Source: Candidatus Saccharimonadales bacterium
GTDB lineage: Bacteria; Patescibacteriota; Saccharimonadia; Saccharimonadales; Saccharimonadaceae
NCBI GenBank assembly: GCA_035697325.1
Contig: DASSDB010000002.1
Span: 91,232-155,231 of the forward strand
DNA: 64,000 nt
Reading direction: 5' to 3'
Made by a program: the position numbers and the translations under genes. Below, piece by piece: positions 7,089 to 60,491 of the stretch (position 1 is its first letter; the number at the start of each line of letters is the position of its first letter). The notes under the pieces were generated by a model. The model saw only the letters and a list, made by a program, of their open reading frames with translations, was not told where the DNA came from and searched no databases.

Positions 7089-8141
7089 CTATTGGTTCAG
7101 GATACTATTACTTGGGTCGTTCTCGTCGCGATCGGCGCTCGGACTTTGACCCTTTTTCGTACTCGCACCACCAGCATTTACCTCATAGCTGGTATTCGTA
7201 CTTTCAAAGAAGTTTACGAGCTCAAGCGTATCGTTAGCCGCTGCCATCCACTTAGCAGGGTTACTTACCTTGTAGTGGGGGTCGAATCCAAGCTCTTCAA
7301 GGCGCCTATCTGCCAGATATTTCACGTACTGATTGATATAATCGCTGTTAAGCCCTAGTATGCCGTTTGGAAGAAGATCGCGGTTATACGCTTCTTCCAT
7401 CTCAACACCATCGAGGATCATCTGCTTGATTTCAGCCGCAAATTCCTCAGTTTGAAGATCTTCATTTTCTTCCAATACGGTGAGGATCAGGTTGATACCG
7501 AACTTGAGATGCAAACTCTCATCACGAACCACCCAGTCGATAAGTGAACCGAAGTTGCGGAGCAGGTTACGCTGACGGAACGAAAGTGCCACCATAAAAC
7601 CGGAGTAGAACCAAATTCCCTCAAGGATAATATTGTAGGCCACAAGGTTACGAACAAAGTCCTTTTTGCCTTCCGTTGTCGTGATATCGAGCGTGTCTTC
7701 GGTCATACGCTTGATAAACTTTGTTTCAAATTCTTCCTTGCGTGCCATAGATGGTGTTTCCACGTGAGCAGCGTAGGCTTCATCACGATTAATCGGAAAC
7801 GTCTCAAGCACATACTCGAAAGACATACAGTGGTTGGCCTCTTCCCACATTTGCTTGGCAAGATACAAGTGACATTCTGCGGCATTCACGTAGGGATACA
7901 CACCAAATGCAAGGGCTTTGTTAACAAGTAGCTCGTTCGGGTTGAAATAGCTCATGAGAAACGTCAGTGCGTGGCGCTCTTCATCACTCATCTTCTTCCA
8001 ATCTGCCAAATCTTGCCCTAATTGGATCTCATTTGGAAACCACGTGTTTGAAACTGCCTGATCATACAGATCCATCGCCCACTTGTAATGAATGGGCTTG
8101 AGCAGTAGCCCGTCCTGAATCCCGGTTCCTAAAATTGCCAT
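7089..8141 (-). CDS. nrdB: Ribonucleoside-diphosphate reductase beta subunit (class I)
   Basis: WFPNEIQLGQDLADW, EEANHCMSFEYV and VRDESLHLKFG di-iron ligand regions. Confidence 0.95.
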   Translation of the reverse strand: MAILGTGIQDGLLLKPIHYKWAMDLYDQAVSNTWFPNEIQLGQDLADWKKMSDEERHALTFLMSYFNPNELLVNKALAFGVYPYVNAAECHLYLAKQMWEEANHCMSFEYVLETFPINRDEAYAAHVETPSMARKEEFETKFIKRMTEDTLDITTTEGKKDFVRNLVAYNIILEGIWFYSGFMVALSFRQRNLLRNFGSLIDWVVRDESLHLKFGINLILTVLEENEDLQTEEFAAEIKQMILDGVEMEEAYNRDLLPNGILGLNSDYINQYVKYLADRRLEELGFDPHYKVSNPAKWMAAANDTLELVNFFESTNTSYEVNAGGASTKKGQSPSADRDENDPSNSILNQ

Positions 8142-44930: not shown

Positions 44931-47651
44931 ATGGTGGAATTGCGAAAAGCCTTTCTGCCCGGTAGTATATCGGGACGGAAAATTCTTTTGTTCGCCACAA
45001 GTATGCTCGTGGCCGTCTTCGCATTGCTTGGCATTTCTCCCACTGCCTACGCAGCCGACGCTACCTGGCAGGGCAATTCTATAACCTATGCCCAAAAGCA
45101 ATATATTAAAACCGGAAATGCCGGCAGCAATGACCCTCGCGGTTTTGCCAAAGACACTCAAATATATGCCTACGTGGAGCCCATTGTATCGGGTTCTTCA
45201 AACCCAACCCAAAAAGCTCACCTAATCTATTTTGCTCCAGGTACAGACCCTACCAAGGCAACGACGGCATCGTATGTCGTGTACGATTACACGCCGCCAG
45301 ACAGCTACACCAATCCCTCAGGGGCGACGCAGATCACCCTTGATCCTCAACCGGCAAATGCCAACGAAAACACTACCTCTTGTGCGCTAGAAGGTATTGG
45401 CTGGATTGTGTGTCCAGTCACTAAATTTTTGGCCGGGGCCATGGACTGGATGTATGGCATTCTCGCCAGCTTCCTTACCGTGCGTCCAGTACAAACGAGC
45501 CAAGATAATTCACTTTTCCGCATTTGGGCCGTTATGCGAAACTTTGCTAACATCGTCTTCGTTATCGGCTTCCTCGTTATTATTTATTCGCAAATAACCA
45601 ACGCCGGTATCTCTAATTATGGTATAAAACGTTTGCTCCCGCGCCTTATCGCGGCGGCAATTTTGGTGAATTTATCATACTGGATATGCGCCATCGCGAT
45701 CGACGTCTCAAATATCTTAGGTAATTCCATACAGGAATTGTTTATCAGCCTGCGTAATGTATTGGTGGGCCGAGAAGGGAACAACTGGGACATTATCAGC
45801 TGGGAGAGTATCTCCAGTTTCATTCTTTCTGGCGGAACAGCGGCCGTACTTGCGGGTATCGGAGCAAATATTTTACTCGGCGGTACGATTACCGGTTCGA
45901 TCTTCATGCTCGTGCCGGTACTAGTAACGGTGCTCGTAGCCGTGTTGGTGGCACTGCTGGTTATGGCGCTTCGCCAAGCGCTTATTACTATACTAGTGAT
46001 CGTATCGCCGCTGGCATTCGTAGCGTACTTGCTACCAAATACCGAGAAATACTTTGAAAAGTGGCGCGAGCTCTTCATGACAATGCTGCTGCTTTTTCCG
46101 ATCTTTTCGGTTATTTTTGGTGGATCACAGCTGGCGGGTATGGCAATTATACAAAATGCCAATTCGATCAACCTCATTCTCCTTGGTATGGCCGTACAAG
46201 TTGCTCCAATTATTATTACGCCTTTACTTATTAAGTTCAGCGGATCACTACTTGGCCGCTTTGCCGGCATGGTCAACAACCCAAACAAGGGACTTATCGA
46301 CCGCACTCGCAACTGGGCAAAGGATCGTGCCGAAAACCAAAAAGCTCGCGTACTTGCTGGCACACCGCGTGCCGGCTGGCGTGGAGCCGCCACCAGGCGC
46401 TCGCAAAACATTGAAACCAAGCGCCGCAAGCGCGAGGGCTGGCGCGCAGCCAATACCGCGCTGGCTGATGCTGCGTGGGCTAATAGCGAAGAATACTCAA
46501 AAATTCACCAGGCCAACCAACGTGCCGCACTTTCTAAAGAAGCAGGTGAAACAGCCGCGCAAGTACGCTTTGAAACCGCCAAAACAACCAATGCCGCGTT
46601 GCAGCACATGGACGTTGAGGCGCGAGCTGCTAAATTGAATTTGGATGTTACCAAGGCTAAAGTAGACGCCAATTGGCAAGAATTGATGGCGGGTAAGAGA
46701 ACTAATGAAAACCTCCTCGACTTAGAGGCGCTGAATCCGGCAGAAGTTTCTCGTCGAGGTATTGGCAACTACCAGGCCTATCGCAACAATATGGTTGAAG
46801 CTATCAAACAAGCCTCGATCGATAATAACCTTGAAAAGCGCCGTGCCCACTCCGCTGAACATGTACGTCAAGAAGATATGACGAAGCTCATGCTTTCAGA
46901 CAACTTAATACGTGAACGTGCTAAGGGTATTGATCCACACGGTGCCGATACAGCCCTAGCAAACGCCGTTGCCGAAGATCGAACTGCCTTTGGTAAATCT
47001 GTGGAAGAAGCAAAGCATGTATTGAAGCACTTTAACGTCAGCGCCGAAAAGCGAGCTGACCTCTTAAGAGGTGAGACTATTCACGTAACCGATAGCTCGG
47101 GACACCCGCGTGACTTCAGCCTTAAGGATACGTTCATTACCGAGGCTGCAATTGAAATCCAGATGAAGGAAGGAAGCTTTAGACAGAGGGAAGATATTAT
47201 TGCCGAATCTGGTAAAGGCGGCAAGCTATATGCTCACCGAACCACTATTGGTGATGAAGCTAAGGCGAACAAGATCGGCGAAATGGCCGCTTACTTTGGT
47301 GGTTCCGCTATCGACCGTATTAAACAGGGTGAAATTAAGGGTAATGCTGGAATCGACCTGAACATTGCGCACACCATCCGTAGCGGTAAGCTCAAGGCCG
47401 CCCACCTTGCCGATATGGATTGGGAAGCCGTCCAGCGAGTGGTTAAGGTTGCACGAGCTAATGCACCTGCTGAATTCAATGCTGCACAGGTGGCCGAATA
47501 CGAGCGAAACCGCGCTCAACTGGGCACACTGGCGAAGGAAGCACTCACGAACACCAGCCTTCGTGGCCGCGTGGCAAGGAACTCTCTAGAACACTTACAA
47601 AACCTTATACAAGACTTTCCTCCACCTCCAACACCGCCTAATAACCCTTAG
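44931..47651 (+). CDS. VirB6/TrbL-like polytopic T4SS channel protein with ~430-aa hydrophilic C-terminal tail (paralog 1)
   Basis: Signal peptide, ectodomain of about 120 aa ending in CALEGIGWIVCPV, then six or more TM helices (LFRIWAVMRNFANIVFVIGFLVIIYSQ..., RLLPRLIAAAILVNLSYWICAIAIDVSN...). A charged helical tail ends in PPPPTPPNNP. Confidence 0.75.
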   Translation: MVELRKAFLPGSISGRKILLFATSMLVAVFALLGISPTAYAADATWQGNSITYAQKQYIKTGNAGSNDPRGFAKDTQIYAYVEPIVSGSSNPTQKAHLIYFAPGTDPTKATTASYVVYDYTPPDSYTNPSGATQITLDPQPANANENTTSCALEGIGWIVCPVTKFLAGAMDWMYGILASFLTVRPVQTSQDNSLFRIWAVMRNFANIVFVIGFLVIIYSQITNAGISNYGIKRLLPRLIAAAILVNLSYWICAIAIDVSNILGNSIQELFISLRNVLVGREGNNWDIISWESISSFILSGGTAAVLAGIGANILLGGTITGSIFMLVPVLVTVLVAVLVALLVMALRQALITILVIVSPLAFVAYLLPNTEKYFEKWRELFMTMLLLFPIFSVIFGGSQLAGMAIIQNANSINLILLGMAVQVAPIIITPLLIKFSGSLLGRFAGMVNNPNKGLIDRTRNWAKDRAENQKARVLAGTPRAGWRGAATRRSQNIETKRRKREGWRAANTALADAAWANSEEYSKIHQANQRAALSKEAGETAAQVRFETAKTTNAALQHMDVEARAAKLNLDVTKAKVDANWQELMAGKRTNENLLDLEALNPAEVSRRGIGNYQAYRNNMVEAIKQASIDNNLEKRRAHSAEHVRQEDMTKLMLSDNLIRERAKGIDPHGADTALANAVAEDRTAFGKSVEEAKHVLKHFNVSAEKRADLLRGETIHVTDSSGHPRDFSLKDTFITEAAIEIQMKEGSFRQREDIIAESGKGGKLYAHRTTIGDEAKANKIGEMAAYFGGSAIDRIKQGEIKGNAGIDLNIAHTIRSGKLKAAHLADMDWEAVQRVVKVARANAPAEFNAAQVAEYERNRAQLGTLAKEALTNTSLRGRVARNSLEHLQNLIQDFPPPPTPPNNP

Positions 47652-49794: not shown

Positions 49795-51798
49795 TTGTTT
49801 CAAACTGCTATCGGTTTTATACTGATAGCAGTTATGTTTATGTGGCGTGATTTATTTTCTAACATAAGACGTCGAGTTCTTGTTTTAGCTGCCGTGCCGC
49901 TTTTGTCGCTCCTTAGCCTTTACACGCCATTTTTTGCAAATTCCGCCTATGCCGTTACGGCAGATGATGTCCTTAACCGCGCTCGTGCGTGGTCAATTTT
50001 GCAGGCGGTGATTGATAAGGCAAGTCTTCTTGATTCAAGTATTAGTAACGAAGACGCCAGCAACTGTCATATTTTTGGTGGTTCAGACAATGATGCGGTG
50101 TATGTTGGCCACTGGGCGACAGGTGATAACGATGATAACGGCACCGTTTACTCCAACGGAGGATCGTGGGACGCACTCGAAAACAGAGTGGATCTTGCTA
50201 ATAATGCACTGGCTTCTGTGGGAATTCAGGGTGGCTGCCGAGGTTTGCTTGAAAAACTAGGCTACACCTCTAGCGGCGGCGACATGAATCAGCCAAAGGA
50301 TTATAGTAATGGCGATGGCGAGGTCCGCGATAAACTCCAAGCTGCTCTTAAGGCTGATGCATTTTTTGGCAGACGGCTAAGCGATGGTTCACCTGGTGAC
50401 GCAATTTCTTATGCAATGCTTTATTATGCGCTCACTAACGTATGCGGTTGGGCATATCGAAATCCTTTTGTACCCAACGATACATCACCGGGAGACGACG
50501 GAAGTAGAAACCGCGAAGCTCAAAACAACGGCTGGAGCGGTGATAGCCGTAACAGTCATTTTCATACATATACATATGAAAACGGTAAGGCAGGCGAGAA
50601 TACATACTACAAAGGCGGAGGCCGCGAAGATGATATCCGTGTCGGCTCAAAAACCGGGTTTGCCAACTCTGGGAATAACGATGCTATCACCGACTGTGGC
50701 GACAATAACGCCGATACAATTGGAGCAAAGCTAGGAGATAACCCCCGTTTTGCAGATGCGTACGCGGCGCTTTTGAAGCCAGGCGGTCAATATACTCCAG
50801 GAACGTGTGGTGAAAAGTATCCGGCAGCCGGTACAGACGCAGAAGTCCAGCGAGCAAACGCTCTTCGAGCGGCTTGTGACGACGGTTTCAAAAATAAAAC
50901 GGCTGGATATTGTGACAAATATAATAGCGATAAAGGCCTAAAAGACGCCTGTTTATACGGGCAACAGACCGCCACGGGTCTCTCCACAGATACGACGCCT
51001 GCCCAAGAAAAAGATCCTACTAAAAAAGAAGATAAAACCACGTGTGCCATCCCCGGTATCGGCTGGATCGTCTGCCCAATACTGAATTTGCTTGCGCAAT
51101 TGGTAGATGGCGCATATAGTTTTGTTGCGGCTCTGCTTAAGGTACAGCCAGTTGTGATGGATACTAACTCCGGATTGTTCAAGGCGTGGTCGGTTATGCG
51201 AAACTTCGCCAATATTGCCTTTGTTATTGCCTTCTTGTTTATTATCTTTTCACAGGTGACCAGCTTTGGTATATCTAATTATGGTATTAAACGAATGCTG
51301 CCGCGGCTTATTATTGCGGCGATATTGGTCAATGTATCTTTCTGGATATGTTCGCTTGCTGTCGACCTTTCGAACATTGGTGGCGCATCGCTTAAATCTC
51401 TCTTTGATGGCATCGGGCAGGGATTAAGTCTTCCGAATACCGACAATGGATTCAACTCCGGTACTCAATGGCAGGGAATCGTTGGTGGACTACTTGGTGG
51501 TACCGTCCTTGTTGGAGCGGCTCTGTATATTGGGCTTTCGGCACTTATTCCGGTGATACTCGCTTGTCTTATCGCTATTTTGGCTGTATTCCTCGTATTA
51601 GTTATTCGCCAGGCATTGATTGTGCTATTAATCGTTATATCACCACTGGCGTTCGTGGCGTACTTACTACCTAATACCGAATCATTATTTACAAGATGGC
51701 GGAAACTATTTACGACTCTCCTTATCCTTTATCCTGTGGTATCGATCATATTTGGCGCTTCGGCTCTGGCGTCTAAAATCGTCATGGGAGGAAGCTAG
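49795..51798 (+). CDS. VirB6/TrbL-like polytopic protein, paralog 2, TM part (ends at an in-frame TAG)
   Basis: Signal peptide, a roughly 370-aa Cys/Gly/Asp/Asn-rich ectodomain ending in CAIPGIGWIVCPI, then TM helices colinear with paralog 1 (LFKAWSVMRNFANIAFVIAFLFIIFSQ..., RMLPRLIIAAILVNVSFWICSLAVDLSN...). Alternative start ATG at 49834. Confidence 0.75.
   Translation: MFQTAIGFILIAVMFMWRDLFSNIRRRVLVLAAVPLLSLLSLYTPFFANSAYAVTADDVLNRARAWSILQAVIDKASLLDSSISNEDASNCHIFGGSDNDAVYVGHWATGDNDDNGTVYSNGGSWDALENRVDLANNALASVGIQGGCRGLLEKLGYTSSGGDMNQPKDYSNGDGEVRDKLQAALKADAFFGRRLSDGSPGDAISYAMLYYALTNVCGWAYRNPFVPNDTSPGDDGSRNREAQNNGWSGDSRNSHFHTYTYENGKAGENTYYKGGGREDDIRVGSKTGFANSGNNDAITDCGDNNADTIGAKLGDNPRFADAYAALLKPGGQYTPGTCGEKYPAAGTDAEVQRANALRAACDDGFKNKTAGYCDKYNSDKGLKDACLYGQQTATGLSTDTTPAQEKDPTKKEDKTTCAIPGIGWIVCPILNLLAQLVDGAYSFVAALLKVQPVVMDTNSGLFKAWSVMRNFANIAFVIAFLFIIFSQVTSFGISNYGIKRMLPRLIIAAILVNVSFWICSLAVDLSNIGGASLKSLFDGIGQGLSLPNTDNGFNSGTQWQGIVGGLLGGTVLVGAALYIGLSALIPVILACLIAILAVFLVLVIRQALIVLLIVISPLAFVAYLLPNTESLFTRWRKLFTTLLILYPVVSIIFGASALASKIVMGGS
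49803..49833 (+). other. 12-bp hairpin ending at the first ATG of VirB6-like paralog 2
   Basis: AACTGCTATCGG-TTTTATA-CTGATAGCAGTT (one G-U pair); ATG at 49834. Confidence 0.5.
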
Positions 51799-51801
51799 CA
51801 T

Positions 51802-52869
51802 ATGAATGGTGTCGTAAAATGGGTACAAACGGTGATGGGCGCCGGTATTGGTATTATTCCTTTGTTTTTAACCTACATGCTTGTCATGGCTACTTTAAAG
51901 GGCCTGGGAGCTATTGGTGGCGCGGTTTTAAGCGCTAGCGACAGAAGCCAAAAGGCAGGAAAGAATTTTGCGCAGGGTATTCGTGATGACCGCAAGAACA
52001 TACGTCGCCGCAATGAACTTGAGGGTAGGGGGATGGTAGGTCGTCGCGCTATTACACAATGGGGTGCGAGGCGCGCTGCCAAACGGGCTAGTAATGAAAC
52101 AGGTGCTAAGCGTGCTGAAACAGAATACGTTGCCGATACAGCCGTAAGTAATGATGCATTTGCAAGTGCGCTGGCTGGTGGCGACGAAGCTCGTAAAGCA
52201 GGTGTGGTGGCTGCCGCTGTTAACCAGCAAAAGAAGGCTTTTCAGGAAGATGTCAGTGACATGGAAGCACTTATTAAAATCAAGTTCGACAATGACCCGG
52301 AGAAGGCTCTTAAGGACGCCATAGAGAGCGGCAACAAGGCACAGGCTGTTGCTGCCCAAAATATGCTGTTTGCTAAGGGCGGTTCGGGTGTTAGTAAATT
52401 CCGTGAAATTGTAGAAGAAAGTGAGAAAACCACAGAAGGTCAGCAAAAGCTCGACAATGTTTCAGGTAGTTTGCGCGAAAACCTTCAGGAACGCCATGGT
52501 AAGCAGGCCAAAGACAAAGGCGCCGACCTCGTTACATGGGCAGGTAAAGGCGGCAAGCTCACTGACGCAAAGGCGGGAGCAATGTCCGACAACGATTTGG
52601 CCGGTCAGCATGCTGCGAGTATCGAAAAGATGGTCAATCAAGGAGGTGTTATTTCTGGCGATCAAGCGCGACGCGTCCTCTCTGATCCACGAGTGAGTGC
52701 CAACCTTAACGATGACCAGAAAAAACAACTTGTTCGTGCAGCCGGCGGAGACCTTCGCCCAGCACCGACCGATAAGGAGCTTACTATCGCTCATGAAGAA
52801 GCTGATGTTCAAAATAAACTCCATGACATGGAGAACAACAATCCGTCGGAACCACGGCAAGGTCCATAA
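51802..52869 (+). CDS. Continuation of VirB6-like paralog 2: last TM segments plus hydrophilic tail
   Basis: Same reading frame as 49795-51798, separated only by TAG-CAT. Aligns with the last TM region and the tail start of paralog 1. GGAGG lies 10 nt upstream of its ATG. Confidence 0.7.
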   Translation: MNGVVKWVQTVMGAGIGIIPLFLTYMLVMATLKGLGAIGGAVLSASDRSQKAGKNFAQGIRDDRKNIRRRNELEGRGMVGRRAITQWGARRAAKRASNETGAKRAETEYVADTAVSNDAFASALAGGDEARKAGVVAAAVNQQKKAFQEDVSDMEALIKIKFDNDPEKALKDAIESGNKAQAVAAQNMLFAKGGSGVSKFREIVEESEKTTEGQQKLDNVSGSLRENLQERHGKQAKDKGADLVTWAGKGGKLTDAKAGAMSDNDLAGQHAASIEKMVNQGGVISGDQARRVLSDPRVSANLNDDQKKQLVRAAGGDLRPAPTDKELTIAHEEADVQNKLHDMENNNPSEPRQGP

Positions 52870-52890: not shown

Positions 52891-53916
52891 ATGGCAGTAT
52901 ACAAAGTACCTCAGGATGTTGAAGCCGATGACAAGTTGATCGGTCCATTTAGCTTTCGCCAGTTTATCTATATTATTATTGCGATTATTGCTATCGGTCT
53001 TGCCTGGGGACTTGCTCAAATATTTGTAGGGCTAGCCTTAATACCACTACCTTTAGTAGTACTTTTTGGTGCGCTCGCGCTGCCGCTTCGTAAAGACCAG
53101 CCCATGGAAATATATCTCGCAGCGGTAGTGTCATTTCACTTAAAACCCCGCAAACGCCTTTGGCTCCCGGATGGGATTCAATCACTGGTAGAGATTACGG
53201 CACCTAAAGTTGTTGAAATTCAACGTACAAAGGATTTATCTCAGTCTGAAGCCGAACAAAGGCTCTCTTACCTTGCAAATATCGTTGACACTGGCGGCTG
53301 GGCTGTGAGGGGAGTAAGTACCCCAACTCCTGATAGCGCTATGCAAAACGACGTTTACTACGCCGCTCAGCAAACAGAAGATGTTCTCGATACGAATAGT
53401 GGCGTCGCCCAGTCTTTCAATACAATGATCAACCAAGCGGAAGTTGAGCGGAGAGAAGAAATGATTGCCCACATGAAAGAGGAGCCAAAGACGACAGCTA
53501 TCGTCCCTCAGGTGCCTGATCCATATGCAAGCCTGGCGCCCTCGGCACCTTCCCAACAGACAATGCCAACCGCCTCAACGCCTGTGACGGATGATCCGCA
53601 CCTTACGTATAATCCGTATCCAAATAGTATTCACCAGACGGTTATCAACCCCCTAGGAAGCACTCCTCGGTCCGTGCAAGCACCAATATCCGCTCCATCG
53701 ACAGCTGCCGCTCCACCGTCTGTGCCGACGGCAGTACCCGCGCCCGTGCAAACTGCGCAAACAAACACTAGCGAAGCGGTAGTGTCACCTGATATAATAA
53801 ACCTTGCAAATAACTCTGATTTATCTATCGAGACGATTGCGCACGAAGCCAACCGTATTCACGAGAAGGAAGAGCAAAAACTTCCCGACGATGAAGTGGT
53901 CATTTCATTGCGATAA
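52891..53916 (+). CDS. PrgI/VirB3-like protein with a long Pro/Ser/Thr/Ala-rich C-terminal extension
   Basis: N-terminus MAVYKVPQDVEADDKLIGPFSFRQFIYIIIAIIAIGLAWG plus a second TM helix matches the PrgI-family layout of Gram-positive T4SSs. About 240 further residues are partly low complexity. Confidence 0.65.
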   Translation: MAVYKVPQDVEADDKLIGPFSFRQFIYIIIAIIAIGLAWGLAQIFVGLALIPLPLVVLFGALALPLRKDQPMEIYLAAVVSFHLKPRKRLWLPDGIQSLVEITAPKVVEIQRTKDLSQSEAEQRLSYLANIVDTGGWAVRGVSTPTPDSAMQNDVYYAAQQTEDVLDTNSGVAQSFNTMINQAEVERREEMIAHMKEEPKTTAIVPQVPDPYASLAPSAPSQQTMPTASTPVTDDPHLTYNPYPNSIHQTVINPLGSTPRSVQAPISAPSTAAAPPSVPTAVPAPVQTAQTNTSEAVVSPDIINLANNSDLSIETIAHEANRIHEKEEQKLPDDEVVISLR

Positions 53917-53950: not shown

Positions 53951-54835
53951 GTGCCGCCAAATAATCAACAACCTCTACAACCAACCCCAGGGTCTGCTCC
54001 GAATATTCAGCAGCCTGTTCCTGCCGCCCCTCAAGTCCCCCTGCCACCCCAGCCTCAACAGCAGCCAAACGCCGTTGGGTCGGGTCAACAAGCTCAGCAG
54101 GCTAAAAAACCAGCAAACCCTAATACAACCCAAAATAGTCTTTTGATTTCTGAAATACGGGAAGGGATGGCGATTATGAGCGACGGCAGTTTTCGTGCGG
54201 TCGTGGCCTGTAAATCTATTAACTTCGACCTTATGAGCTCTCGCGAGCGGGAAGGTGTTGAGTATAGCTACCAGAACTTCCTTAACGCACTGTATTTTCC
54301 AGTACAGATCTTCATTCGCTCACAGCGTGTCGATATTGGTCCGTATCTTGATCGGCTTGCCAATATCCGCCGATCTCAAGATAATATGCTTCTGAATGTA
54401 CTAATGGATGATTATATCAATTTCATCGATGTGCTTTCGCAGGAAGCAAATATTATGGATAAGAGCTTTTTTATTGTTATTCCATACTATCCGACGGGCG
54501 ATCTTAATAATGTTGTTGAACAAAGTAAAGGCTTCTTTAGTAAGATCTTCGCCAAGGCTCCTACAACTGCGACCAAAATTGATAAGGTCGCCTACGACAA
54601 GGCGAAGGATGAGATCAAAAACCGTGTTGATTCTGTAATGAGCGGTTTGTTCCAGATTGGCATTAAGAGCGTTCAACTTAATACCAAGGAACTCGGTGAA
54701 CTTTATTACAATATGTACAACCCCGATACAGCCGTACGGGAACCACTTGGTGATTTTGAGAACGTAACAAGCATGTACGTTGCCAAGGGCCAGGGAGAAG
54801 CTCCTCGTCCACACCTGCAAGAAGGGGGTATGTAG
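53951..54835 (+). CDS. VirB4 N-terminal domain-like protein (separate ORF) with Pro/Gln-rich N-terminus
   Basis: LLISEIREGMAIMSDGSFRAVVACKSINFDLMSSREREGVEYSYQNFLNAL...ELGELYYNMYNP resembles the extreme N-terminal region of Gram-positive VirB4 ATPases (Orf16/TcpF/PrgJ type). Assignment from memory. Confidence 0.55.
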   Translation: MPPNNQQPLQPTPGSAPNIQQPVPAAPQVPLPPQPQQQPNAVGSGQQAQQAKKPANPNTTQNSLLISEIREGMAIMSDGSFRAVVACKSINFDLMSSREREGVEYSYQNFLNALYFPVQIFIRSQRVDIGPYLDRLANIRRSQDNMLLNVLMDDYINFIDVLSQEANIMDKSFFIVIPYYPTGDLNNVVEQSKGFFSKIFAKAPTTATKIDKVAYDKAKDEIKNRVDSVMSGLFQIGIKSVQLNTKELGELYYNMYNPDTAVREPLGDFENVTSMYVAKGQGEAPRPHLQEGGM

Positions 54836-54837
54836 AA

Positions 54838-56739
54838 ATGGCCAAGAAAAAACTTGATCCAATTGACATTGCTGCTCAGCAGCGCGCCCGCGAACAAGCC
54901 GAGGTAGAACAAGCGTTCTTAAAAGGAATGACGACGCTTCGTGACCTCATTGCGCCAAGTAGCATTGAAATTCACTCCAGTCACTTTAGGCTCGGGACGA
55001 AATATGGTCGTACGCTATATATTTATGGGTATCCGCGCCAGATCTACACGGGTTGGCTGAGCTCACTTATTAATATCGATGAAGTACTCGACATCAGTAT
55101 GTTTATTTATCCGGTTGAAAGCCAGGTGGTACTTAATAATCTTCGCAAAAAGGTGACTCAGCTTGAAGCAACCATGTCCATCAACAGTGAAAAGGGAAGA
55201 ACTCGTGATCCAGGGCTTGAGGCAGCCTTGCAAGATGCCGAGGAACTACGCGATCAGTTACAAGTGGGTGCCGAACGCTTTTTCCGCTATGGCCTGTATG
55301 TCACCTTATACGCCGATAGCATGGACGAGCTGAGCTTTGTACAGCACAAAATTGAAACGATATTCGGTCAGCAGTTGATCTTCAGCAAAGTCGCTTCCTC
55401 ACAGCAGGAGCAAGGGTTAAATAGTACGATTCCTCAGATGACCGACCAATTGCAAATTCGGCGCAATATGAACACCGGCGCAATCAGTACTAGCTTCCCA
55501 TTCACAAGTGCTGATCTAACCCAAGAAAAGGGCGTATTATACGGTATAAACATGCACAACAACGGATTGGTTATTTTTGATCGGTTCTCTCTTGAAAATG
55601 CCAATATGGTAGTGTTTGCAAAATCTGGTGCCGGTAAGTCGTTCACTGTAAAGCTTGAGGCACTTCGCAGCATGATGGTTGGCTGCGACGTGATTATCAT
55701 CGACCCTGAAAACGAATATCAAAAGCTCTCTGATGCGGTAGGGGGAAGTTATATTCGTCTTAGCCTTAGCGCGGATACACGTATTAATCCATTTGATCTT
55801 CCTAGGGTTATCGACAGTGATGAAGCAGATGATGCGCTTCGCGCCAACCTTGTGACACTTCACGGCTTGTTCCGGCTGATGCTGGGAGGAACGCAATCAA
55901 CCGCGAATGGGCAGATTATGTCTGCCCTCACGCCAGCCGAAGAGGCCGACCTTGATCAAGCTCTTATCGATACGTACGCGCGTGCCGGTATTACCAGTGA
56001 CCCGCTTACGCATCACTCAAAGCCCCCTACAATCGCCGACTTATACGACACACTGCTCCATATGGGCGGCACTGGCCCAGCGCTGGCGCAACGCTTGCGC
56101 AAGTATACCAGTGGAACCTTCGCCGGTATTTTCAGCCAGCAGTCAAACATCGACATCAACAACAATATGGTCGTCTTCAACATCCGTGACCTTGAAGATG
56201 AACTTCGTCCAGTAGCTATGTATATCGTACTATCGCACATTTGGAATATTACCAGGACCGACCAGCGAAAGCGCATGCTTATCGTGGACGAGGCGTGGCA
56301 GCTCATGAAATACGATGACTCTGCAAACTTCCTCTTTAGCCTCGCTAAGCGTGCTCGTAAATATTACCTTGGACTTACAACTATTACGCAGGACGTTGAG
56401 GACTTTATGGGAAGTAAAATGGGACGTGCGATTGTCGCCAACTCCTCTATGCAACTTCTCTTGAAGCAATCATCGAGTGCCGTTGATGTGCTTTCCGACG
56501 TCTTTAAGTTAACAGAGGAAGAGCGCAAACGTCTCGCTAACTTTCCGGTTGGACAAGGTTTATTCTTTGCCGGTCAAAACCATGTTCACATTCAAATCGT
56601 CGCCAGCCAAACCGAGACGGGACTTATTACCACTAATCCAGCGGCGGCGCAGCCTCAGGCGCCACAACCCCCACAGCAGAATCCCGGTGAGCCGATGGCA
56701 ACCAACGGCTACATGAATCCTGGCGAATTCAGCGTATAA
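54838..56739 (+). CDS. virB4: VirB4-family T4SS ATPase (main body)
   Basis: LRDLIAPSSIEIHSSHFRLGTKYGRTLYIYGYPRQIYTGWLSSL, Walker A FAKSGAGKSF, Walker B RMLIVDEAWQL. ATG 9 nt after AGGGGG. Confidence 0.88.
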   Translation: MAKKKLDPIDIAAQQRAREQAEVEQAFLKGMTTLRDLIAPSSIEIHSSHFRLGTKYGRTLYIYGYPRQIYTGWLSSLINIDEVLDISMFIYPVESQVVLNNLRKKVTQLEATMSINSEKGRTRDPGLEAALQDAEELRDQLQVGAERFFRYGLYVTLYADSMDELSFVQHKIETIFGQQLIFSKVASSQQEQGLNSTIPQMTDQLQIRRNMNTGAISTSFPFTSADLTQEKGVLYGINMHNNGLVIFDRFSLENANMVVFAKSGAGKSFTVKLEALRSMMVGCDVIIIDPENEYQKLSDAVGGSYIRLSLSADTRINPFDLPRVIDSDEADDALRANLVTLHGLFRLMLGGTQSTANGQIMSALTPAEEADLDQALIDTYARAGITSDPLTHHSKPPTIADLYDTLLHMGGTGPALAQRLRKYTSGTFAGIFSQQSNIDINNNMVVFNIRDLEDELRPVAMYIVLSHIWNITRTDQRKRMLIVDEAWQLMKYDDSANFLFSLAKRARKYYLGLTTITQDVEDFMGSKMGRAIVANSSMQLLLKQSSSAVDVLSDVFKLTEEERKRLANFPVGQGLFFAGQNHVHIQIVASQTETGLITTNPAAAQPQAPQPPQQNPGEPMATNGYMNPGEFSV

Positions 56740-56751
56740 TAGAGCATAATC

Positions 56752-59304
56752 ATGGAAACCAAGACTCCAAATACTAGGGAAGAACAGGATCAAGCCCACA
56801 ACCCTTCTCAAAGGAATATTGATCGTGAGTTCCAGCATATCGCCGACAACAATACGTTCGACGACATGATGAATAGCAATGGTCTTGGTCAAGAGCTCAA
56901 GGATATGGAGCAGCGTGTCGGCAAAGAAGCGGGGAATGCTGACAATGGAAGTTCGAATAACGCTCCAGACGCATCGAAAAACATCAGCAATGCGAAATCC
57001 AGCGAACAAGCCTGGAATACGGACGTATCTGCGGGCAATAAATCCGCTAAACAGAAGCAGGGATTTGGGTCACGCGTAAAGGGCATTTTCAAGAAACAGC
57101 TTCCTACGGCACTCGTTGGAGGTGGATTACTGACCGGTGGTGGGTTGCTTGGCTTCTTTGGCCTTACGCTTATGCCGGTTACTATAGCCGAACACTTCAC
57201 CAATGACACGAACGATGTCAATGACTCAAGCCAGCACAAGTCACTCAACCTTATTGGTAAACAGCTTGGCGGTGACGCGCGCAAAAAGCTAAGTATTTGC
57301 AATAAAGCTATTTCAATCCGCTGCAAATTTAATTCGATGGATAAAGACCTGGTAGCCAAGTACGAAGAGAAGGGCTTTAAATTTGGCGAAAAGCAGGTAA
57401 GCACAGACGGCAAGCGCGTAATGTTTACGTCCATCGAATTTCCGACAGGGGAAGTTGCCCATAACGTACAAGAACTCACGGCCATTTTAAAGAACTCAGC
57501 AGTTGCCAACGCCGCTTTTAACGCCGTGTACAGCCTTAAGAATTCTCTATTCTTGGTGGGAAATTTCTTTAAGGGAGTTTTAACAAGCTTGAATCTTACT
57601 AAACAGAAAAAAATTGAAGGAAAAAACAAGGAGGAAGCGGACAAATCGTTCGAGGACTCGGCAAAAGGCGAAAAGGGGACCGTCAGTACGGAGTCCGTCG
57701 CAAAACAAGCCGGCGATAACGCGAGTGAGGAGGCTAAGAAGGATGCCCAGGCGGCCACAGACGCCGGGAATGATACGTCGAGACAAATAAATGAGGCGAT
57801 CGCCAAAGGCTCCAAGCTAAAGTCGTTATCCTTGAAGATTACGAATGCTTTGGCAATACCTCAGCTGGCGTGTCTTACCTATAATATGTCGAGCTTCATA
57901 GCCACCATGGCAAAAATCAAAAAAGCTATGCGCTTTGCGGCATTTGCCATGATATTTCTCACGATGGCAAGTGCAATAAAAGCCAATGCCTCTACTGATG
58001 CCGAGGTGACGAAGGGAATGAGTATTCTTGCGCCATCGACCTACCCTCAAAAAGTTGAAGATCCTGAAACGGGAGAAATGATAGATAATCCTAATATCGG
58101 CAAAAATGCGCTGGATGCCGAGGCCTATAAAGTGGTGGCCTACGGTGATCAGATAAATCTTACAGGACTCGCTACCCGATTCTTTATCGCTAGCGGATTC
58201 CTTGGTGTTCTCGAAAAAATTGTCACGTGGCTTAACGACAATATTGGAAAAGAAACGATTAAGCTCACCTGTAAAGCGGTAAATAATAAGGTCGTCCAGA
58301 TCATTAGCTTTTTGGCCGCACCAATTTTCAGTGCAGTTATCCTTGGTATTACCAGCGTGCTACCTATTGAAGAGTGGGCAGCCGAACTTGTAAACGTAGC
58401 GATTGATGCCGCGGCAGGTGTCGATCTTACGACAGGCGTTACTGGAGTGGACGCAGGAAACGTCATATTTATCGGTGCCGCTGTTATTTTGGGAACGACG
58501 GCTATGAAATTCGGGCTAAAACCAGGAAAGCTTGCTGCTATTAAAGCAAACATCGCGGCAAACAACGAGCTTAATCAGCAGGACATAGCCATGAAAACAT
58601 ACGAAGCTTCAAAAACACCTTTTGATATTAATAATCGCTACTCATTCTTAGGTGCCATGGCGACATCACTCGCAGACTACATGCCTTCTATTCAGCAGCC
58701 GTTCATATCGACAATTGGGAAGACCTTTGCAGCCATTCCAAATTCGCTAACCATGCTGACAAATAACACTAAAGCAGCATACAGTATGCCCACGGCAAAC
58801 TATAGCGAGACTCGGTTTAGCCAGTGTAAAGATGAGGTGTACGCGACATTGAAGGATAAAATGGACCCTGATATGTTTTGCGCCGTACGATACGTACCTC
58901 ATGAATACGTTGATTCGGACGTCGTTCTTGATTATATGGAAAGCAATAATCAAATTGATGAAGTCTCGGGTAGTCCTAAGCCAGATACATACCTTGATAA
59001 ATACATGAAATACTGTGTCAATCGCGAAGATCCGTGGGGTAGTACAAGTGTCGCAGCCGAAGAACAAACGGATGAAGCAACGTGGTATACCGGCGAAAAA
59101 TGCATGGACGACACAACCGAGAATAAAATGTCGAGCGAATACAATGGCTATCTCATTTCTCAGACAAACCAAGATGAAGCAGGCTCAGGATCAACGGCCA
59201 CCTCAGCCTACTCCGACGACCCAGGCAAAGCCATGGCAGATCTTTCTACACCACAGGCACTTTCACTAGGAATGGCATATGCAATGGGAGGACTCAGCCA
59301 GTGA
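56752..59304 (+). CDS. 850-aa polytopic membrane protein of unknown function
   Basis: Hydrophilic N-terminus, at least six hydrophobic helices and large loops. The TGA stop overlaps the GTG start of the hydrolase gene (GTGA). No family recognised. Confidence 0.7.
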   Translation: METKTPNTREEQDQAHNPSQRNIDREFQHIADNNTFDDMMNSNGLGQELKDMEQRVGKEAGNADNGSSNNAPDASKNISNAKSSEQAWNTDVSAGNKSAKQKQGFGSRVKGIFKKQLPTALVGGGLLTGGGLLGFFGLTLMPVTIAEHFTNDTNDVNDSSQHKSLNLIGKQLGGDARKKLSICNKAISIRCKFNSMDKDLVAKYEEKGFKFGEKQVSTDGKRVMFTSIEFPTGEVAHNVQELTAILKNSAVANAAFNAVYSLKNSLFLVGNFFKGVLTSLNLTKQKKIEGKNKEEADKSFEDSAKGEKGTVSTESVAKQAGDNASEEAKKDAQAATDAGNDTSRQINEAIAKGSKLKSLSLKITNALAIPQLACLTYNMSSFIATMAKIKKAMRFAAFAMIFLTMASAIKANASTDAEVTKGMSILAPSTYPQKVEDPETGEMIDNPNIGKNALDAEAYKVVAYGDQINLTGLATRFFIASGFLGVLEKIVTWLNDNIGKETIKLTCKAVNNKVVQIISFLAAPIFSAVILGITSVLPIEEWAAELVNVAIDAAAGVDLTTGVTGVDAGNVIFIGAAVILGTTAMKFGLKPGKLAAIKANIAANNELNQQDIAMKTYEASKTPFDINNRYSFLGAMATSLADYMPSIQQPFISTIGKTFAAIPNSLTMLTNNTKAAYSMPTANYSETRFSQCKDEVYATLKDKMDPDMFCAVRYVPHEYVDSDVVLDYMESNNQIDEVSGSPKPDTYLDKYMKYCVNREDPWGSTSVAAEEQTDEATWYTGEKCMDDTTENKMSSEYNGYLISQTNQDEAGSGSTATSAYSDDPGKAMADLSTPQALSLGMAYAMGGLSQ

Positions 59305-60491
59305 TAAAATTATCAAAAAAAATAACGTCGATCGTGCTTGCATCCTTAATTGTCAGTTCCATCTTTACGGGATGGGCGCATGCTGAAGGAATCGACCAGC
59401 AATTTTACTCTGGTAATGATATTCTTTTTTATGATCCTAGCGCGACATGCGTTCCTGGTACAAGCGGCTCCGTTACGCCTGGCAGTGCGGCAAATCCGGC
59501 TCCAGCGGACTTTCCTAAAACGGTTTGGTCATTCCTCCTTGGCAAAGGCCTTACCGCAGAGCAAGCTGCTGGAGTTATGGGAAACATCCAGCAAGAATCT
59601 ACTTACAAGGGCTATCCTTTCAATCCTGAAGCAGAAGAAAAGCCAGGCACTGGCACAGGTGGTTATGGTATTGTGCAATGGACAGGTCCGCGCCGCCAGA
59701 GCCTTAACGCCGCTGCCGCAAAGCAAGGTGTTCCCGTGTCGAGTCTCGCATTTCAGCTTGAGTATCTTTACCAAGAAAGCAACGCTCGAACCGCTAAAGC
59801 ATCGTATGGTGGCGGTAATGAATGGGACGGACTAAAAAAGCAAGCGACGATTATCCAGGCGACAGTATACTGGCATGATAATTTTGAGCGATCAGCAGAT
59901 TCGCCCGAAGCCGTCCGAACCGTTCGTGGCGGCTATGCCCAAAAGTGGTATAACGAGTTTAATGGCAAGGTTGGACCAGGAAGCTCCGCCGGCTGCGGTG
60001 TCGCCGATACGTCATCACTGACCGCAACTGCGAAATCGTATGCTTGGCCCGACTATCGAGGTCTTACCATCGTCGCCAAGCCCGAGTATGTGACGGCACT
60101 CAATAAAGCACGGTCGGAAAGACGCTATATTGGAGGAATCAGTTACCCGGGAATCGACTGTGGTGGTTTTGTAACAACCGTCATGTACGACTCTGGTTTC
60201 GAAAAAGCCTACAATTCAAATGCTCGCGGCGGAGCAACTCCCGCGCAAAAAGCATGGCTTGATAAAAACTGGACTAACCTTGGGAATGGCGCTTCTATAA
60301 ACGTCGGCGACCTTCGGGCGGGAGACGTTGCAATGCTTCCTGGCCACACATATGTCTATGTTGGAGACAAAGGCAAAAAGCCGGAAGGATTTGATAGCGT
60401 CATCGCCTCAGCATCGCTTGACGAGCGCGCTCCAATGGCTGGACGTGAGAAAATTACCGCATCCGACACGACATGGTATCGAAAGAAATAG
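59301..60491 (+). CDS. Secreted two-domain peptidoglycan hydrolase (lysozyme-like N-domain + NlpC/P60-type C-domain)
   Basis: Signal peptide (AHA-EG). GLTAEQAAGVMGNIQQES...GYGIVQWTGPRR resembles the phage-tail-tip-lysozyme-type domain. GIDCGGFVTTVMY...LPGHTYVYVG provides a Cys/His papain-like dyad. Confidence 0.75.
   Translation: MIKLSKKITSIVLASLIVSSIFTGWAHAEGIDQQFYSGNDILFYDPSATCVPGTSGSVTPGSAANPAPADFPKTVWSFLLGKGLTAEQAAGVMGNIQQESTYKGYPFNPEAEEKPGTGTGGYGIVQWTGPRRQSLNAAAAKQGVPVSSLAFQLEYLYQESNARTAKASYGGGNEWDGLKKQATIIQATVYWHDNFERSADSPEAVRTVRGGYAQKWYNEFNGKVGPGSSAGCGVADTSSLTATAKSYAWPDYRGLTIVAKPEYVTALNKARSERRYIGGISYPGIDCGGFVTTVMYDSGFEKAYNSNARGGATPAQKAWLDKNWTNLGNGASINVGDLRAGDVAMLPGHTYVYVGDKGKKPEGFDSVIASASLDERAPMAGREKITASDTTWYRKK

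Follow-up and report, generated by a model that had tools for sequence, protein, structure and literature searches.

A VirB6-like gene in a Candidatus Saccharimonadales type IV secretion locus, probably divided into two translationally coupled genes

This analysis concerns a gene for a VirB6-like protein (paralog 2) in a 64,000-nucleotide (nt) stretch of a Candidatus Saccharimonadales genome (G000:C2:91232-155231, hereafter the window; genome of 1.03 Mb in 9 contigs, estimated 99.9% complete). The gene is interrupted by a single TAG, and a second open reading frame (ORF) begins 3 nt later. We consider it highly probable (roughly 0.9) that this TAG acts as a normal stop codon and marks an old, maintained break, where the gene underwent genuine fission into two translationally coupled genes. 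The break is conserved among relatives, with variable stop codon, spacer and frame; both resulting genes are under purifying selection; and TAG is decoded normally in this genome. A preliminary description of the locus had left three readings open: a two-polypeptide split with coupling, an error of assembly or a nonsense mutation of recent date, and a fusion of about 1020 amino acids (aa) made by regulated readthrough of the TAG. The comparative evidence strongly supports the first of these and refutes the other two.

A break shared by eleven lineages

The junction in the window reads AAA ATC GTC ATG GGA GGA AGC TAG CAT ATG AAT GGT, with the TAG at 51796-51798, then CAT, then the ATG at 51802, all in a single reading frame. 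The upstream gene (N-half) spans 49834..51798 on the plus strand and encodes 654 aa, as judged by gene calls in relatives. Mechanical calling gives a 667-aa ORF at 49795-51798, with the first TTG at 49795; because the relatives' gene calls begin at the ATG equivalent to 49834, the latter is likely the real start. The downstream gene (C-half; 51802..52869, plus strand, 355 aa) lies in the N-half frame, directly after TAG CAT. Coordinates and frame are therefore as first described, with a TAG and an in-frame ATG 3 nt further on interrupting paralog 2. An in-frame neighbor taken alone does not exceed chance in this compact genome, in which at least 150 in-frame sense codons come after 50 of the 791 long ORFs; what gives the junction meaning is its homology to continuous proteins.

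Such homology is extensive. Of 201 genomes of the family, 183 have a match, and the listed matches that span the junction have open frames of ∼750–1350 aa; the exceptions are the window genome, G002 and G024, each with a single in-frame stop. Within the genus, represented by five species genomes, the positional orthologs are continuous in G003 (958 aa) and G001 (1091 aa), and the G004 ortholog is cut by a contig end. At the junction, the continuous G003 ortholog reads FGASALASKIIMASSDNTAVQVIGAGASVIPL. Fused orthologs from G003, G001, G013, G014 and more than 100 other genomes align across the junction, as fission of a once continuous gene predicts.

The window itself also holds an unsplit VirB6-like protein, paralog 1 (44931..47651, plus strand, 906 aa), whose orthologs (880–920 aa) are found in every genus member. 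Internal comparison gives 48% identity between paralog 1 and the N-half over the transmembrane (TM) core, up to FGGSQLA / FGASALA, and paralog 1 runs on past the equivalent break point without a stop. That paralog 1 is continuous where paralog 2 is broken had been noted before, and this is correct; past the break, BLASTP found no significant similarity to paralog 1. Alignment across the junction is obtained with the orthologs of other genomes.

To extend the comparison, each half was used as a database query and the contigs were fetched, yielding eleven junctions from genomes and metagenomes. These come from independent JGI, ENA, Logan and NCBI assemblies, and the split assemblies span 45–95% protein identity; homologs bear the names Candidatus Saccharibacteria, Microsaccharimonas or TM7i. 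A search of genome contigs with the C-half query gave no confirmed relative, and the split forms were recovered through genome and protein homology searches. In the window and in G002, another species of the genus (GGA GGA GGA AGC TAG AAT ATG), the stop is TAG, the spacer is 3 nt and the two genes are in frame. L022 has the same spacing and frame with TAA. The remaining junctions are out of frame: TAA with spacers of 5 nt (L024), 1 nt (L026), 8 nt (L055), 7 nt (L057) and 2 nt (L059), TAG with a spacer of 8 nt (L056), and TAATG overlaps, i.e. a spacer of –1 nt, in L027 and L058. Altogether, TAG closes three of the N-halves and TAA closes eight (L022, L024, L026, L027, L055, L057, L058, L059), while the frame is kept at 3 of 11 junctions, with about one-third expected by chance. 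Stop identity, spacer (–1 to 8 nt) and frame thus drift, whereas the break, the start codon and a purine-rich Shine-Dalgarno (SD)-like tract persist. At the orthologous loci, whose comparison the preliminary description had suggested, the gene is mostly continuous, and the same break, with TAG or TAA, is present in 11 lineages.

Substitution patterns indicate that the two genes are maintained. For the N-half, comparison of the window with L022 gives a nonsynonymous divergence (dN) of 0.051 and a synonymous divergence (dS) of 1.45, a ratio of 0.036, and comparison with L024 gives a dN/dS of 0.072. The C-half shows a dN of 0.12–0.22 against its three closest relatives (0.12 for the window against L022), with synonymous sites saturated. 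Across all comparisons, dN/dS is 0.036–0.07 where dS is measurable; elsewhere, dN is 0.12–0.5 and dS is saturated. No additional stop was found in the N-half or C-half of any lineage. Both halves are maintained genes under strong purifying selection.

The break falls at a well-defined place in the protein. The N-half comprises a signal/anchor helix, an exported domain of ∼370 aa with many Cys, Gly, Asp and Asn residues, and then a polytopic TM core ending FGASALASKIVMGGS just before the stop. The C-half opens with the final TM helix of the conserved core; a linker rich in K/R leads from there to a soluble, all-alpha domain of ∼300 aa. When 110 fused homologs are aligned with it, the distance from the conserved Ser of ALAS to the Gly of MGAG varies between 15 and 31 residues, and the Pro that is invariant in the family, P278 in the alignment, corresponds to Pro20 of the C-half, downstream of the break. 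We modelled the read-through chain with AlphaFold2 (AF2), with the TAG as Q (613 aa, predicted local distance difference test score [pLDDT] 77.6). Here, a helix at 218–258 and a helix at 262–297 are joined by a 3-residue turn that contains the break, with a local pLDDT of ∼85. When modelled alone, the C-half (pLDDT 84.8) forms one long TM helix plus an all-alpha domain. Its soluble part (product residues ∼45–345) is all-alpha and repeat-like, with many blocks above pLDDT 90. Foldseek of the C-half alone against the PDB returned no significant match, and Pfam and NCBIfam assigned it no family. The K/R-rich segment after the TM helix suggests, by the positive-inside rule, that the C-half tail is presumably cytoplasmic. 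Presumably, too, the two halves reassemble in the membrane into the fold of the fused orthologs.

Probable coupled initiation and the alternatives

The SD-like element GGGAGGAAG (51786..51794, plus strand) lies in the Met-Gly-Gly-Ser codons that close the N-half gene, and its GGAGG core (51787-51791) ends 10 nt before ATG 51802. The 3′ end of the 16S rRNA is GGATTACCTCCTTTCT, so classical SD pairing applies, with CCUCCU in the tail as the partner. It had been proposed that the last N-half codons double as an SD 10 nt upstream of ATG 51802, and both the position and the 16S pairing agree with this. The predicted duplex between GGGAGGAAG and the 16S tail has an energy of –10.2 kcal/mol. For the 11 split junctions, the mean is –9.1 kcal/mol (range –6.8 to –12.2), compared to –3.8 kcal/mol in the equivalent loop of 21 fused orthologs (–7.0 as the best of 15 windows). 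In the subclade of the window, the N-half ends in Gly-Gly-Ser where fused orthologs have Ala/Ser/Thr-type residues, a replacement consistent with selection for the SD. Stop and start are only a few nt apart, and the SD falls inside the coding sequence of the upstream gene or directly behind it, a layout typical of coupled genes; no terminator was found at the junction. We infer that GGGAGGAAG serves the downstream ATG and that N-half and C-half are translationally coupled.

The alternative that fares best, though we regard it as quite unlikely, is a real split in which the cistrons are expressed independently (by an internal promoter or uncoupled initiation) and the C-half works as a factor of its own, without rejoining the N-half. 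A weak promoter-like sequence, TTGGCG-16-TAAAAT, is indeed present just upstream (51752-51779), and the soluble domain of the C-half is confidently folded on its own in the model. However, promoter-like matches in the region occur at chance level (6 found versus 5.5 expected), and a separate C-half promoter was considered and set aside for that reason. Moreover, the stop-start distance of –1 to 8 nt is typical of coupling and holds in all lineages, and the core TM helix of the C-half, with its invariant Pro, packs in the model as a hairpin with the last N-half helix, which argues against a factor that functions apart.

Regulated or programmed readthrough or suppression of TAG, yielding a functional fusion of ∼1020 aa, appears less probable still. 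It would fit the window, G002 and L022, in which the ORFs share a frame and a single sense codon separates stop from ATG. Against it, the closest relative, L022, has TAA, and L024 is out of frame with a spacer 2 nt longer. Conservation of the stop codon and frame, which such a mechanism would require, is lacking, as 8 of 11 junctions have TAA and 8 of 11 are out of frame. In addition, every lineage retains the means to initiate independently, namely an ATG and an SD-like tract. Nor does the decoding apparatus give any sign of recoding. The preliminary description had suggested a search for a tRNA with a CUA anticodon; Aragorn, run on the whole genome, reported 41 tRNAs, none with this anticodon, and hence no suppressor. 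The gene for release factor 1 (RF1), prfA, is intact (470 bits, above the curated cut-off), and TAG is a common stop, terminating 270 of 791 long ORFs (∼34%). Thus neither a suppressor tRNA nor RF1 loss nor depletion of TAG accompanies this junction. The drift of stop, spacer and frame, with the break kept, rules out TAG-specific recoding and any need for the fusion product. As a separate observation, Aragorn did not report a transfer-messenger RNA gene in this nearly complete genome, a result obtained without a covariance model.

The least credible account is that this genome has an incipient pseudogene, through a nonsense mutation of recent date, or an error of sequencing or assembly: one base change could make a TAG and the assembly is in several contigs, but the same break in at least 11 lineages, seen in independent assemblies across the identity range given above, rules out both, and both halves are intact with low dN even between lineages in which dS is saturated.

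We therefore return to gene fission with coupling as the preferred explanation. The ancestor would have been a single gene for an extended VirB6-like subunit of a type IV secretion system (T4SS), occupying the place of prgH, ahead of prgI/virB3 and virB4. Fission in a Saccharibacterial lineage, inside the short turn between two TM helices, would have produced two cistrons on one mRNA. Ribosomes would terminate at TAG 51796-98 and restart 3 nt later at ATG 51802 to make the C-half, using the GGGAGGAAG element embedded in the final N-half codons, which would constitute the coupling. The N-half would then supply the ectodomain and most TM helices, and the C-half the last core TM helix and the all-alpha tail of ∼300 aa. 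Two considerations weigh on the other side. The frame is preserved in the window genome and two close relatives, so that occasional readthrough, with trace amounts of fusion protein, is possible. And the AF2 chain was artificially fused, meaning that association of the separate chains is not provable from the model.

Probable recurrence of the break, or re-fusion

To ask how often the split arose, we built trees from the TM core and the 200 C-terminal residues. Seven split forms (window, L022, L024, G002, L055, L026, L027) make up a monophyletic main clade with support of 100/99, whose sister is the fused G067 protein. Distances between members reach ∼1.2 substitutions per site. A first small tree had joined the fused G003 protein to L026/L027; this was misleading, and larger trees resolved the main split clade.

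Other split forms fall elsewhere. L056, with the junction IIMGS TAG ggaagagt ATG, groups with the fused G003 protein inside a 100/100 clade of fused proteins, and G024 (L041), with the junction KILMAAAGQ TAA ACT ATG, groups with the fused G214 protein (support 100/98). L059, with the junction SSGAN TAA ag ATG, is unplaced in the trees. An approximately unbiased (AU) test rejected a single clade of all ten split forms (delta log-likelihood 97.4, P = 0.003), and the tree calls for at least four changes of state. Together, these results indicate that the same loop was broken, or re-fused, more than once. One caveat here is that G024, L056 and L059 are one assembly each; the data suggest recurrent fission or re-fusion less securely than they do the main clade.

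A broader idea, which we put forward tentatively and hold to be doubtful rather than probable, is that the turn in the TM core is a natural module boundary, repeatedly and independently broken, or re-joined, with the C-module (one TM helix and the ∼300-aa all-alpha domain) being an autonomous subunit. If so, the stoichiometry or assembly order of the C-module could be uncoupled from the channel core, and the module might act as an adaptor towards VirB4/TrsD.

The secretion locus and known systems

The genes that follow the split pair place it in a T4SS operon. Directly downstream is a PrgI/VirB3-like gene (52891..53916, plus strand; PF12666, E = 1.4e-12), which served as the synteny anchor for positional orthologs and has the same position in G002, G003, G013 and metagenome loci. 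Further on lie a TrsD-like gene (53951-54835, 294 aa; NCBIfam TrsD/TraD NF041427), the gene for the VirB4-type ATPase of the same T4SS operon (54838..56739, plus strand; PF19044 TraG P-loop, E = 1.7e-27) and a lysozyme/NlpC-P60 hydrolase gene (59301-60491, profile match). By its gene content, the locus is a T4SS of the monoderm type. The order VirB6-like, PrgI, VirB4 is the prgH-prgI-prgJ order of pCF10 (PMC12857230).

The TrsD-like ORF, just upstream of VirB4, matches NF041427 over residues 57–177 (E = 1e-4) and has a short match to the VirB4 model NF045975 at residues 214–260 (E = 4e-6); at orthologous loci, the precomputed Pfam assignment is PF26593 TraC-like. These matches make it the TrsD-type partner known from Patescibacteria (PMC12102498), related to VirB4 and not simply a VirB4 fragment.

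At the other end of the split pair, a perfect 13-bp inverted repeat, AACTGCTATCGGT-TTTAT-ACTGATAGCAGTT (49803-49833; predicted folding energy –19 kcal/mol), ends exactly at the probable N-half start, ATG 49834. The repeat is also present in L007 (∼7271-7301), L022 (∼2002-2032) and L024 (∼2006-2036), and the surrounding ∼50 nt agree letter for letter among four species-level relatives, with one change in L024. This conservation stands against the saturated synonymous sites of the adjoining gene. There is only one copy in the whole genome. The repeat could be an operator, or an RNA hairpin that occludes the ribosome-binding region.

The label VirB6-like is backed mainly by gene position and architecture. 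Hydropathy indicates 6–7 hydrophobic segments in the N-half (TM region ∼419–659) and one in the C-half, and the AF2 model has long helices throughout residues 12–297, in line with the at least five TM helices of VirB6 proteins; like these, the gene also sits in a T4SS operon beside VirB3/PrgI and VirB4 homologs. Comparison of profiles and folds adds weaker evidence. Profile searches with Pfam and NCBIfam placed neither of the halves, nor paralog 1, in a family with significance. Similarly, Pfam searches of the window proteins and 9 homologs, up to E = 1, gave no significant match, the best being PF04610 with E = 0.47 on P0043. Precomputed PF19590 TrbL_3 matches, graded weak or faint at the loci, are present on most of the 120 best homologs, including the window N-half (P0011, 654 aa). 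A profile search of PDB sequences returned nothing relevant. With the TM core plus C-half as the query, Foldseek gave no significant match in the PDB (best E = 0.45), although TrwI/VirB6 chains (7o3v, 8rt9, 8rtd) appeared at ranks 2, 4, 6, 13 and 23, with probabilities of 0.44–0.60, TMt values of 0.32–0.47 and E values all above 0.4. Patescibacterial VirB6 proteins have been detected using MPF_T VirB6 hidden Markov models (PMC12102498). We regard the label as reasonable but not proven.

The split protein is a previously undescribed architectural variant of a known T4SS component, and its significance is modest. A natural, long-maintained split marks where an extended VirB6 divides without loss of function, and it defines a separable C-terminal module. 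For annotation, N-half and C-half ORFs should be treated as one functional unit and not as a pseudogene. A false lead is also removed, namely that of TAG recoding or a suppressor in this genome of the Candidate Phyla Radiation.

Among known systems, the closest likeness is to the extended VirB6 / TrbL proteins such as pCF10 PrgH and R388 TrwI (PMC12857230), which are likewise polytopic, with at least five hydrophobic helices and large hydrophilic domains, and likewise encoded directly upstream of PrgI/VirB3-like and VirB4 genes. The organization of these large proteins is stated to be unknown (PMC12857230). Unlike them, the window protein consists of two polypeptides, cut inside the TM core, and its ectodomain and C-terminal all-alpha domain are without known relatives.

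Patescibacterial T4SSs and their VirB6 homologs are covered in PMC12102498. The monoderm T4SS of Southlakia epibionticum ML1 (Wang et al. 2023, as cited in PMC12102498 and PMC12857230) has the same gene set as the window: VirB2-like pilins, VirB6-like, PrgI/VirB3, TrsD-like, VirB4 and a cell-wall hydrolase. The virB6 gene of ML1 is reported to be essential (PMC12102498), and the Saccharibacterial T4SS is reported to be essential for epibiotic growth, its VirB6 gene being essential in the only strain amenable to genetics (PMC12102498, PMC12857230). Unlike in the published accounts of Patescibacterial T4SSs, which do not mention a split VirB6 (the word 'split' does not occur in PMC12102498), paralog 2 in the window occupies two genes. 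Our literature search for a split VirB6 found none described; where 'split into two' was matched, the text was about other genes.

Gene fission with translational coupling is a general phenomenon in bacterial operons. As in other such cases, stop and start in the split forms are a few nt apart or overlap (TAATG in L027 and L058), the coding sequence of the upstream gene contains the SD, and the two products match, by homology, successive parts of a protein that is single elsewhere. The window differs from the general case in that the cut is inside a helical hairpin of the conserved core, embedded in the membrane, and not in a linker between soluble domains, and in that this type of break apparently arose or reverted several times at one loop.

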